Assembly (NCBI GenBank): GCA_965219995.1 | Contig: CBDCOX010000002.1 | Location: forward strand, 384,001-448,000 | Direction of reading: 5' to 3' | DNA from: Candidatus Latescibacterota bacterium | GTDB lineage: Bacteria; Latescibacterota; UBA2968; GCA-2709665 | Length of the DNA: 64,000 bases | Shown: positions 55,206 through 58,550 of the stretch, one piece after another | Position numbering within the stretch: the stretch's first letter is position 1 | How the letters are laid out: each line of letters begins with the position of its first letter | Position numbers and translations under genes: made by a program | Notes under the pieces: generated by a model | What the model was told of the DNA's origin: nothing | What the model saw: only the letters and a program-made list of their open reading frames with translations | The model's database searches: none

Positions 55206-55241
55206 AAGAAAAGACACGCTGATTTCAGCGTGTCTTTTCTT
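55206..55241. terminator. Bidirectional intrinsic terminator closing the redox operon
   Basis: AAGAAAAGACACGCTGA-TT-TCAGCGTGTCTTTTCTT. Confidence 0.85.
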
Positions 55242-55260
55242 CCAGATGGCTTCTTTTGGC

Positions 55261-56241
55261 TCAGGGCACGCGTTTTCCGAAGTTCTTCGCGAATTCCAGA
55301 AAGTCCGGAAAGTCGACCAACCCGTTTCCGTTCAGGTCGAAGGTGGCGTTGTCGGTGCTGAAGGCCTGGGCGAATGCGACGAAGTCGCTGAACCCGATTT
55401 CTCCGTCATTGTCGAAGTCGGCCCGGGGATTGACGGGGACAACGATGGCCGTTCCTGAAAGAGCGACGGTGACGCTGCTGTTTTCAGGGTCGTCACTGGA
55501 AATGGTAATGGTGCCGGAGAATGGACCGCCCTCCGAGGGTGTAAAGGTGATGTCGACTGTAGCGCTGTCGCCAGGCGCGACCATGAGTTCCGTCAGGCTG
55601 AACATGACGCCCTCGAGGTCGGATACCATGTTCGAAATGCTGAGGTCGGTCCCGCCGGTATTCTGCACGACCAGCTTCAGGGTTCGCGACTCGCCCGCCG
55701 GAACGTCTTCACCAAAGTCGAGCGATGTATTGGCGAGGCTGATTGCGGGCGGCGTAACGGTCAGCAATTCCCGGATACTCGCCGCCGCGGCGCTGAGACC
55801 GGAAGCGCCGCGCCCAATGTGGCGGACGATTCCCTCACGGTCCGCGACCAGCAACGTGTGGGTCCCGTGCGATCCCCTGATACTGCCCGCCCTCAGCAGG
55901 AGGGGAAACGTGATCGAGGTCGTCGACTGAAAACCTTGAAGTTGGGACTGACTGCCATTGTAGATGTCGAGCCCCAGGACCGCAACGCCGTCATCCTGGA
56001 ACGCCTTCCAGATCTGCTGTTCAATGGACGGACCCGCCGCCCTGCACGTGGGTCAGTTGTGGCCCAGGTAATAGAGGACCAGGACACCGCCCTTGTAGGT
56101 CGCCGAGGCGTAGGTCTTCCCGTCCAGCCCCGTAAGCGAGAACGTCGGTACCGCGTCGCCGACACTCTGGGCTTCCGCGGGTTCCGGCGGGTTGAGTCCG
56201 AAGAACAGCAGAAACACAAGGCACGCCGCGATTCGACTCAT
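55261..56241 (-). CDS. Putative selenoprotein (326 aa): signal peptide + redoxin (UxxC) + Ig-like ASH/choice-of-anchor-D domain + dockerin-like double EF-hand
   Basis: ORFs 56053-56241 and 55261-55854 are in one frame, separated only by the TGA at 56053-56055. Readthrough gives VLVLYYLGHN-U-PTC at the thioredoxin-fold active site. Confidence 0.85.
56026..56052 (-). promoter_or_regulatory. Bacterial SECIS-like hairpin
   Basis: UGA-CCCACGUGCA-GGGCGG-[CGGGU]-CCGUCC. The G-rich apical loop begins 16 nt after the UGA. Confidence 0.6.
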
Positions 56242-56274
56242 CGAAGGCCTCCTTCAAGAAAGTGAAAGTTCGCG

Positions 56275-57858
56275 TCAGAAATGGGTTTTAAGTCGCATTT
56301 CCAGTCCACTGAACGGCAACACAAGATAGCATGTCCCCGATGTACACGCGGCGCCGCCTCTCCTGCGTCCGGCGAATACGAAGGCTTCGTATCTATCGAG
56401 GAAGGCGACGTTGAGACTGACCGCCAACCAGGTCCGCGATCCGGTTTCGATCCGGTCCGTCGTGACGTTATCGTCCACTTCGAACGGATCGTTGGTGCGA
56501 TCCAGAATGAGAGCGGCGCCCGCGCCCGAGGGATGCTGGAATGAAAACTGAGCATACACATCCCGGAACGTCTGCTCGTTTCGGGGAAGCCTGGCAGCGC
56601 GTCGGAACTGCAGATCGAAGCTCGTGACAGCCCCGCCGGGTGCGGTGGACTCGATCCCCGCGCCGGCGATCCTGTGCATTCGGATGCCCTTCAATTCGTC
56701 CTTGCCCCAATTCACGAACAGGCTGGTCGATATCGCGCGGCCGTGGTCTTCCCTGTGGTGGTCGATGTCCAGGCCGACGTACCGTTCATTGAAAGTCGTC
56801 GCGAATCCGGGCGCCAGTTCGTTCTTTCCCTTACTGATGTTTGCCGTCAGCGTCCCCATCCCGAAAATCGAATACGTGGCCTCCGCCTGGTAGCCCGTTT
56901 CCGTATCGGCAATCAGTGCATGGGTCGCCCGGTTGAGCAGGACGGCCGAGTGTTCGCGGACCAGGGAAGGGGGATCGTTGAAACTGAAGGCGAAATTCTC
57001 ATAGTCCTTGTATTCCAGGCTGAGACCCAGGTTGGAAATTCCGGCGTTGGCCGAAAGATACAGAGCGCTTCCGTCCACGTGGACGTCATTCAGCCCGGCG
57101 TATTCGGCGTAGACGGTCGCGTACAGATCAGAGAGTCCGGATGCCTCCAACGCCGGCGTGACGTCCAGTTCCAGGAAGCCCGACCAGGTTCGGGTCGAAT
57201 CGAGCCTGGAGGCGTGATGGCTGACCGCCGTAACGCCGGCCTCGATCTGGCTGGCAGGCCGTAGCGATACCTCGCCTCCGACAAGCCAGCTATCGCGCCG
57301 CGGCAGGTCCCGGAGCGGGTTACCCACTCGTACCGCGGGCGGAATATCACTTAATACGGGTCGCCCGATCAGGGCTTTGGCCCCGGCCCGCGGCCCGGTC
57401 CAGGTGGCCATGCTGCCCTCGAGGTCTCGCGAGGGCGAATAGCGTCGCCGGTATTGCCCGCTCTCCAGAATAACGCCCGGCAGATCGAATGCCCTGAGCG
57501 TAATACCCCGCCCCAGGATCGCATAATAGTTGCCCGCAACCAGCTCCACGGGTCCCTGCGTCCAGCGAAGGTGTTTCTGTGAAACATGCACGACCTGGTA
57601 TTCGACCTGCGATAGCGGCGTGCCGGGAGCGGGGTTGCGCCACGCATTGAAGATCTCCGCCCGAAGTCCGGCCTGCATGCCGTGCCGCGTGTAGTCGACG
57701 TCGAACTGCTCATAAAGCGACGAAGCCGCCAGTGAGTCCGAGCCCGGTACGCGTCCCCGCTGGATTTCGGTCAGGCTGGATGCCGTCACCTGAGCACCGC
57801 CCGGTTTCGACGTCACCAGCAGAAGGAGCATTGTCAGGCTATTTGCCAGTGCTCGCAT
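56275..57858 (-). CDS. Outer-membrane beta-barrel protein, DUF6029-like
   Basis: Signal peptide, GNYYAILGRGITLRAF, alternating beta strands, C-terminal GGAACTSGTC..PFSG and a terminal Phe. Confidence 0.75.
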   Translation of the reverse strand: MRALANSLTMLLLLVTSKPGGAQVTASSLTEIQRGRVPGSDSLAASSLYEQFDVDYTRHGMQAGLRAEIFNAWRNPAPGTPLSQVEYQVVHVSQKHLRWTQGPVELVAGNYYAILGRGITLRAFDLPGVILESGQYRRRYSPSRDLEGSMATWTGPRAGAKALIGRPVLSDIPPAVRVGNPLRDLPRRDSWLVGGEVSLRPASQIEAGVTAVSHHASRLDSTRTWSGFLELDVTPALEASGLSDLYATVYAEYAGLNDVHVDGSALYLSANAGISNLGLSLEYKDYENFAFSFNDPPSLVREHSAVLLNRATHALIADTETGYQAEATYSIFGMGTLTANISKGKNELAPGFATTFNERYVGLDIDHHREDHGRAISTSLFVNWGKDELKGIRMHRIAGAGIESTAPGGAVTSFDLQFRRAARLPRNEQTFRDVYAQFSFQHPSGAGAALILDRTNDPFEVDDNVTTDRIETGSRTWLAVSLNVAFLDRYEAFVFAGRRRGGAACTSGTCYLVLPFSGLEMRLKTHF

Positions 57859-58378
57859 CGGCGTTTGCCTCATCGTCGCCGCCGGCATCCGGAAAAAGCG
57901 CCGCAACCGCAGCCAGTAACGCCTCGGCGTTTTTCGAGTTATACCCGACCTGCCGTAGCGCAATCTCCCCGTCGGGTGTGATCAGAAGCGTCGTCGGCAG
58001 GACGTTCACCTGCATTCGCCGCATCACCGCGCTGTCAGAGTCGAGGGCGATGGGGAAGTTAACCCTTCGCGCCCTGAGAAAGGGTTTCACCCGGTTCTGT
58101 CCGCGCGGACCGTCCACGTTGACGCCAAGAACCGTGAGCCCGGATTTTCCGTATTTCTCGTGGATCTTCTGTAGCTTGGGCATTGCCTTGATGCAAGGCT
58201 TGCAGTAGGTCGCCCAGAAATCCAGAAGCACGGGTCCCTTTGCCAGCAGGGTCTTGAGGTTGACCCGTTCGCCCTGCAGATTCCGGAGGTTGAAGTCGGG
58301 GGCCGAGGCGGCGTTCGCGGACGCCGCAGACAGTGTGATCGAGGCGGCAAGAGCCAGCGATTGAAGGGTCGATTTCAT
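57839..58378 (-). CDS. TlpA-family exported disulfide reductase
   Basis: Signal peptide, APDFNL, LLDFWATYCKPC and VLPTT motifs. Confidence 0.92.
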   Translation of the reverse strand: MKSTLQSLALAASITLSAASANAASAPDFNLRNLQGERVNLKTLLAKGPVLLDFWATYCKPCIKAMPKLQKIHEKYGKSGLTVLGVNVDGPRGQNRVKPFLRARRVNFPIALDSDSAVMRRMQVNVLPTTLLITPDGEIALRQVGYNSKNAEALLAAVAALFPDAGGDDEANADASTGK

Positions 58379-58521
58379 CAGTCGAGTCTCTCCCTGATGT
58401 TTCAGCGGCGTTACGAGGAAGTTGCCGTTACACTGAAAAACGCCCGAAGCATCTGACCGGTTCCGGAACCCACGCTGACGCGCGCAATACACGGTGCGCC
58501 GGATTGACGTCGAATTGATTA

Positions 58522-58550
58522 ACAATAACCGAAAGATCACGGCGCATCAA
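58522..58550 (-). promoter_or_regulatory. Candidate promoter of TlpA operon
   Basis: TTGATG-N17-TATTGT on the minus strand. Confidence 0.45.

Follow-up and report, generated by a model that had tools for sequence, protein, structure and literature searches.

A conserved TlpA–DUF6029 module as a candidate thiol-disulfide relay across the bacterial outer membrane

The cascades that lead from DsbD or CcdA to TlpA, ResA or CcmG run through the inner membrane and terminate in the periplasm, and to our knowledge no route for thiol-disulfide exchange across the outer membrane of bacteria is known; literature searches, whose coverage excluded most subscription papers, found no such relay described. 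The present analysis concerns a minus-strand operon of three genes that encode a TlpA-type thioredoxin-fold protein, a DUF6029 outer-membrane beta-barrel and a redoxin (gene 3) very probably containing selenocysteine (Sec). The operon lies in a 64,000-nucleotide stretch from a Candidatus Latescibacterota bacterium (GCA_965219995.1, contig CBDCOX010000002.1, positions 384,001 to 448,000), hereafter called the window. The host is taken to belong to the FCB group; a close homologue is recorded under the name Gemmatimonadota. An initial annotation of this DNA had interpreted the three products as a redox relay from the periplasm to the cell surface, an interpretation that is partly supported here. 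The locus shares with the DsbD/CcdA cascades a thioredoxin-fold CxxC donor and a cysteine hairpin as putative exchange site, and differs from them in having an outer-membrane beta-barrel and a likely exported acceptor.

Other described systems resemble parts of the locus. In the MtrAB/MtrC conduits the lumen of a barrel accommodates a redox protein from the periplasmic side, and the barrel has an outer redox partner, an arrangement like that proposed below for the large DUF6029 barrel. MtrB was recovered in the fold search (Z 13.9), as a generic barrel match with 7% identity, and the chemistry envisaged here would be two-electron dithiol exchange with no role for haem; none of the three proteins gave a cytochrome family match or contains a CxxCH motif. 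The nearest folds of the barrel are the FimD and PapC usher pores (Z 19.1 and 18.3, root-mean-square deviation 4.7 and 5.5, 362 and 371 residues aligned, 9-10% identity), which are likewise 24-stranded, but the DUF6029 protein lacks the plug, the periplasmic chaperone-binding domains and the N- and C-terminal domains of ushers, and no pilus genes are adjacent to it in the window. In Porphyromonas gingivalis, the genes PG2175 (thioredoxin-domain protein), PG2173 (Omp28) and PG2172 (PorA), named in the covered part of PMC13744359, follow together with PG2174 the same order as the TlpA, DUF6029, Omp28 and type IX secretion system (T9SS) cargo genes of Prevotella. Judged from this order PG2174 would be a DUF6029 gene; it is called uncharacterised in the covered part of PMC4335976, and the covered passages of three PorA papers (PMC7712824, PMC12152298, PMC8754138) do not mention these neighbours. 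Unlike in P. gingivalis, the partner encoded in the window is a putative AhpC/TSA selenoprotein with a dockerin-like tail.

The linkage of DUF6029 to TlpA and to a secreted C/UxxC partner, on whose conservation the initial annotation had made its proposal depend, holds well beyond the window. Four sets of loci were compared, namely 80 from metagenomes, 79 from named records (mostly Prevotella-like), 79 from an even sample of Bacteroidota and 40 regions hand-picked in the phylum, of which those with 3.5 kb on both sides were kept (21, 59, 74 and 34, that is, 188). A TlpA gene lies within 2.5 kb of the barrel gene in 184/188 loci (21, 59, 70 and 34 per set), and a second thioredoxin-fold protein with a C/UxxC motif is encoded within 5 kb in 175/188 (21, 59, 68 and 27), in the Sec form in 37 loci; at random positions of the host genome the respective frequencies were 0.3% and 1.6%. 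This synteny is kept through changes of order and strand. In family f4 most TlpA and Sec-redoxin genes are encoded on the other strand, either upstream or downstream of the barrel gene, and at six Bacteroidota loci TlpA is divergent. At seven loci of Bacteroidota TlpA is missing from the 2.5 kb upstream, and the TlpA subfamily is found elsewhere in all seven genomes (5/5 and 7/7 checks). Gene 3 is absent within 1.5 kb at eleven loci of genus g6, most of which are followed by tilS, and a TGA-containing redoxin occurs elsewhere in 4/5 tested genomes lacking gene 3 at the locus. The fixed core is thus TlpA plus barrel. The third gene can be replaced by others and is not always linked, and the operon of the window represents one form of a wider module.

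At the level of whole genomes, DUF6029 was found in 80/301 Bacteroidota genomes and in 97/168 genomes of the host's phylum. A profile of the DUF6029-tied TlpA subfamily (E<=1e-40) matched 74/301 Bacteroidota genomes, with one copy each, all within the 80 DUF6029-positive genomes and none among the 221 others. Omp28 exceeded its cut-off in 50/301 genomes, all of them DUF6029-positive, and in 0/221 negatives (seven negatives had matches below the cut-off). In these profiles the positives are partly circular and the negatives are not. Two plasmid searches yielded nothing in one case and a Prevotella record in the other.

The barrel of the window is a divergent member of its family, connected to it by intermediates of 62-244 bits and having top ESM Atlas matches that are DUF6029 at 0.97-0.98. 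Its AlphaFold2 model (predicted local distance difference test, pLDDT, 89.7) has 24 strands by our own count and no N-terminal plug domain; it consists of barrel and loops only over residues 23-527, and Pfam gives DUF6029 alone. A search of PDB sequences with the barrel profile gave no matches and Foldseek and VIA returned generic barrels only, the absence of a closer match being no proof of a new fold. C505 and C510, the sole cysteines of the protein, are placed by the model in a hairpin formed by strands 502-506 and 509-513, at the other end of the barrel from the short periplasmic turns. Conservation was assessed on a set of 457 proteins, 120 of them near-identical and Prevotella-type, from which 18 not reaching the C-terminus were left out. 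The CxxxxC motif is kept in 438 of the 439 complete homologues, and 349 of these 438 have no further cysteine beyond residue 30, which leaves little to isomerise. Within the barrel, couplings (683 rows, effective number of sequences, Neff, 363) link loops 112-145 and 288-319 with residues of the wall, and there is weaker coupling of the hairpin to each of these loops, a pattern consistent with all three elements being in the lumen. The cysteine hairpin is probably folded into the barrel lumen, at an uncertain depth.

Two further observations were made on barrel genes. One locus (L287, genome G277) has an in-frame TGA away from the cysteine pair, which marks a broken gene or a sequence error. 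In 27 genomes of the Bacteroidota sample (L274-L300) the barrel is far nearer the window's type than the usual DUF6029. Downstream of it one or two AhpC/TSA proteins bearing CPHC-like motifs are encoded, of which one resembles a lipoprotein and one carries a T9SS C-terminal domain (CTD); transfer between phyla is a possible origin of these barrels.

The TlpA protein matches AhpC-TSA (PF00578, 88.5 bits) and Redoxin (PF08534, 72.7 bits) and stays under the equivalog cut-offs of the ResA, TlpA and DsbE models (NF002854, 105.9 against 170; NF047696, 53.8 against 230; TIGR00385, 39.5 against 123). C59, P61, C62 and P128 are unchanged across 95 sequences, so that the CxxC motif and the cis-proline of the thioredoxin fold are both invariant, and the top PDB match of its profile is 2m72. 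A full-length DsbD is encoded in the host genome (L061:913-2862, minus strand); its N-domain contains a C-x4-C-F-x-P stretch, which we take to be catalytic and which resembles the C-x4-C-Y-x-x-x-P of the barrel.

When residues 23-527 of the barrel were modelled together with residues 24-165 of TlpA, using alignments of 95 rows each in which the barrel rows were filtered for the cysteine pair, the interaction prediction score from aligned errors (ipSAE) was 0.88, against 0.22 for the best control. Of 157 solved pairs 116 reached the mark applied to this score, as did 2 of 215 mismatched pairs; these counts are only rough for custom alignments. The runs share at least 96% of contacts, with a partner pLDDT of at least 86; unrelated controls made about 200 contacts as well, none of them confident. 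On the barrel side the predicted interface comprises the periplasmic strand ends all round, both lumen loops and the hairpin tip (506-508), and on the TlpA side it includes residues 56-60, so that in the model TlpA lies inside the lumen and contributes the surroundings of its active site to the interface. Entry of TlpA into the lumen from the periplasm and its binding to the barrel are supported by this model. Inter-protein covariation between TlpA and barrel was tried and rejected as a separate line of evidence, because the top pair (5.44; 267 rows, Neff 142) was nearly equalled after within-clade shuffling (5.42, 5.20 and 4.36), so that the signal reflects ancestry.

A complex of this kind could also belong to a redox-gated or thiol-dependent transporter, in which TlpA would act as plug or gate and keep the hairpin reduced for a solute (metal, thiol or peptide), the surface thioredoxins getting their electrons elsewhere. 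The filling of the periplasmic mouth by TlpA in the model would fit such a function, as would the coupling of the conserved loops 112-145 and 288-319 to the wall, which recalls porin lumen loops, and the presence of solute porins among the next-best folds. This explanation is nevertheless considered unlikely: the barrel has no TonB-type plug, no constant transport-gene neighbour stood out in the loci viewed (no systematic scan was made), and the occurrence of Omp28 over its cut-off only alongside DUF6029 would be left unexplained.

As regards gene 3, its in-frame TGA very probably encodes selenocysteine, because tRNA-Sec, SelA and SelB are all encoded in the host genome, a homologue has cysteine at that position and a hairpin resembling a selenocysteine insertion sequence (SECIS) lies downstream. 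TGA aligned to cysteine, Sec machinery and a downstream hairpin are the features by which bacterial UxxC selenoproteins are recognised. Among family-f1 loci the TGA is in frame in 18/19, the nineteenth (L016) having a cysteine codon. The SECIS-like stem, called by a rule devised in this analysis, is found 3' of 37/49 Sec sites and 0/61 Cys sites in the phylum (37/67 and 3/569 overall), and the stem sequences differ; folding of the 41-81 nucleotides after the UGA against shuffles gave z about 0, which is uninformative alone. Gene 3, with its PF00578/PF08534 matches and UxxC, belongs to a known class, the UxxC selenoproteins of the Prx-like/Redoxin type (PMC13188914), and GOS_C (NF045500) likewise combines a Trx-like fold with UxxC (PMC2398784); the covered passages of these two papers tie neither to an outer-membrane barrel or the surface. 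Gene 3 gave no match to NF045500 at E<=0.01. It is not a peroxiredoxin proper either, since YYLGHN and not PxxxT/SxxC precedes U63 and the bcp/PrxQ models score about 20 bits against cut-offs of 140-260. A single-sequence AlphaFold2 model of the Sec-redoxin domain (pLDDT 37.8) was unusable. In three family-f4 loci (L314, L315 and L339) a further candidate UxxC selenoprotein, with the motif TTURAC, is encoded about 7 kb downstream of the barrel.

The gene 3 product may be extracellular, for which the export systems of the host and its relatives give indirect indications. Orthologous redoxins of family f4 carry a T9SS-type tail, and the host genome, which is outside the Bacteroidota sample, encodes a SprA translocon (G000:C2:789658-794325) and has 21 matches to the T9SS type A CTD (TIGR04183). 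The dockerin-like tail of gene 3 occurs in about 90 copies in the host genome, 48/90 ending within 15 residues of the stop codon and 39 being internal, and two cohesin matches over cut-off each share a reading frame with a T9SS CTD (G000:C2:3130304-3130963 and 2367021-2367701); a cohesin–dockerin surface display system is a possible reading of these sequences. Among 26 partners picked from the 96 listed, 11 were called AhpC/TSA, 11 Omp28 and four neither (E<=1e-5), while 16 had a T9SS-type CTD and two a Dockerin_1 tail. The recruitment of such varied folds and tails suggests a requirement for an exported thioredoxin. PDB entry 2r2c matches the Omp28 partners, and one partner has 5y1a (HBP35) as its best, though weak, match, with E 0.002 across the CxxC region.

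A second cassette present in one genome (L322, G017:C1:4180500-4195000) encodes a lipoprotein TlpA, a TlpA, a divergent barrel and a UxxC redoxin with LVIVD repeats, an immunoglobulin (Ig) domain and a dockerin-like tail, and in metagenome loci L097, L098, L108 and L110 at least two Omp28-type UxxC genes with dockerin tails lie upstream of TlpA and barrel.

The same partners could be viewed as cargo, with the barrel serving thioredoxin-fold proteins or PorA as a pore for export or maturation and TlpA keeping the cargo cysteines reduced. The likeness to 24-stranded usher pores is consistent with this, but it is one of fold only, at the low identity given above; the position of PorA in the P. 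gingivalis gene order and its reported occurrence at the surface without T9SS (PMC7712824 and PMC8754138, in the passages covered) also speak for it, but no PorA-like gene is present at the window locus. Moreover, 16 of the 26 picked partners have a T9SS CTD of their own, and the lumen is apparently filled by three loops and TlpA. Such a pore is accordingly regarded as rather improbable.

The explanation favoured here, and held to be moderately probable, is a relay that carries reducing power outward through the outer membrane by thiol-disulfide exchange. In the proposed pathway, DsbD of the inner membrane would reduce periplasmic TlpA, as in the known DsbD–TlpA/ResA chemistry, and TlpA would then dock, much as a plug does, in the barrel, which lacks a plug of its own and is open at its periplasmic mouth, the step to which the complex model lends support. 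The TlpA CxPC motif would reduce the C505-C510 hairpin hanging in the lumen, and the reduced hairpin, by movement or by access from outside, would in turn reduce an exported C/UxxC thioredoxin-fold protein, a step suggested by gene linkage. This acceptor would be the Sec-redoxin in the window; in Bacteroidota, lipoproteins with an Omp28 domain or cargo of the T9SS would take its part. The acceptor would finally reduce surface disulfides or oxidised thiols. HBP35, which is a T9SS thioredoxin at the cell surface, can reduce insulin in vitro, and its role is termed unknown (PMC2907840, in the part covered). A more far-reaching version of the proposal makes DUF6029 a "DsbD of the outer membrane", whose swinging cysteine hairpin would be charged by lumen-docked TlpA and would power exported thioredoxins and selenoproteins (the Omp28 family, possibly HBP35, and Sec-redoxins) in Bacteroidota and related phyla; on this version, belief and doubt are evenly balanced.

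Several findings weigh against the outward relay. The complex model, which supports the TlpA half of the relay proposed in the initial annotation, has the hairpin tip touching TlpA, but C505 and C510 are outside the listed interface residues, where only 506-508 appear, and no hairpin-to-C59 pair is found within the 25 lowest-error pairs. With the hairpin tip facing TlpA, access from outside would need movement. One complete barrel (P0171) lacks both cysteines. The loci compared are akin and not independent, the detection profiles were built from these same loci, and 13/188 have no second thioredoxin within 5 kb, including three genus-g6 loci checked at long range. Gene 3 itself has no T9SS CTD (Por_Secre_tail) in profile scans, and its type of tail is internal in 39 of the 90 copies, so that the protein could stay periplasmic.

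If the hairpin took no part in electron transfer, the cysteines would form a structural disulfide. TlpA would then serve only as a structural plug or assist folding, with the third gene a fellow traveller. Cross-strand CX4C pairs can indeed be structural, and some lineages show no linkage of the third gene. This is thought quite improbable, given that the TlpA CxPC motif is invariant and within the predicted interface, that unrelated partner folds have been recruited to the locus and that the trio outlasts rearrangement. Slightly less credible still is the same relay running inward, with surface proteins oxidising their substrates and electrons draining to the periplasm. The partner motifs do include CPHC and UPYC, presumably DsbA-like and glutaredoxin-like, respectively; TlpA, however, is closest to the reducing ResA/TlpA enzymes, from which flow to motifs of this type would be downhill in the outward direction. 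Polysaccharide export, suggested because HHpred finds DUF6029 similar to barrels of the Wzi kind (PMC9603273, in the part covered), is considered very improbable, as the constant neighbours are thioredoxin-fold genes (no scan for OPX genes was made), Wzi ranks only 19th among generic barrels in the fold search and the cysteine pair would be left unexplained.

The operon on which the relay proposal was built is confirmed, and its genes are real (Table 1). The three linked genes are flanked by a Gfo/Idh/MocA gene on one side and by tilS on the other. The 20-nucleotide overlap between the TlpA and barrel genes, the 33-nucleotide gap between the barrel gene and gene 3, and the presence of one redox pair per product were all found as initially described, and signal peptides were recognised on the three products by eye. 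The operon's own terminator was equally borne out, its stem stability being matched by 0/200 shuffled sequences. Its own promoter is a mixed case: a consensus scan gave no match upstream of the operon, the candidate being under threshold (8/12 when scored by hand), whereas the motif TTGATG-17-TAT(T/C)GT is retained in 14/15 same-genus genomes despite diverging flanks. Each of the three genes is partly covered by RNA contigs (90-99% alike) that come from four marine metatranscriptomes of a single study; these contigs were rejected as support because they span both flanks as well and are thus evidence for neither transcription nor an operon. Downstream of the operon, a run of housekeeping genes occupies positions 47064-54951 of the minus strand, with tilS (by Pfam), ftsH, folP, purM, a holA-like gene and trxA (by eye).

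Table 1. Features of the three-gene operon, in window coordinates.
Feature	Position	Strand	Basis or remark
Candidate sigma70-type promoter, TTGATG-17 nt-TATTGT	58522..58550	-	kept among same-genus genomes
TlpA/ResA-type periplasmic thioredoxin-fold reductase, DUF6029-tied subfamily, 179 aa	57839..58378	-	profile matches
C59-K-P-C62, TlpA active site	58193..58204	-	invariant cysteines; residues 56-60 in predicted interface
DUF6029 outer-membrane beta-barrel, 527 aa, C-terminal Phe	56275..57858	-	PF19494 55.8 bits (cut-off 27)
C505-x4-C510 beta-hairpin, last outer loop	56329..56346	-	438/439 complete homologues
Putative secreted Sec-redoxin (gene 3), 326 aa: signal peptide, AhpC/TSA with UxxC, choice-of-anchor D Ig, dockerin/EF-hand-like tail	55261..56241	-	
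U63-P-T-C66	56044..56055	-	TGA at 56055-56053
SECIS-like hairpin, 6-bp stem from 13 nt after first UGA base	56026..56042	-	Sec-site versus Cys-site comparison
Choice-of-anchor D / ASH-type Ig domain, residues 165-263	55453..55749	-	NF012200 51.7 bits (cut-off 45); PF22544
Dockerin/EF-hand-like tail, residues 274-321	55279..55422	-	EF-hand_1 28.6 bits; NF041540 25.7 (cut-off 29)
Intrinsic terminator	55206..55241	-	16-bp stem, z -6.82

In summary, the TlpA–DUF6029 module probably represents a novel type of redox pathway in the envelope, of which the searches made found no description. Since the predicted interface pinpoints the residues to mutate, the question of a relay is directly testable. 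If DUF6029 does work as a DsbD of the outer membrane, bacteria would possess a means, made of proteins, to reduce extracellular disulfides. The relay would also account for the recharging of surface thioredoxins, and a function would be assigned to a domain present in 80/301 Bacteroidota genomes and 97/168 genomes of the host's phylum.

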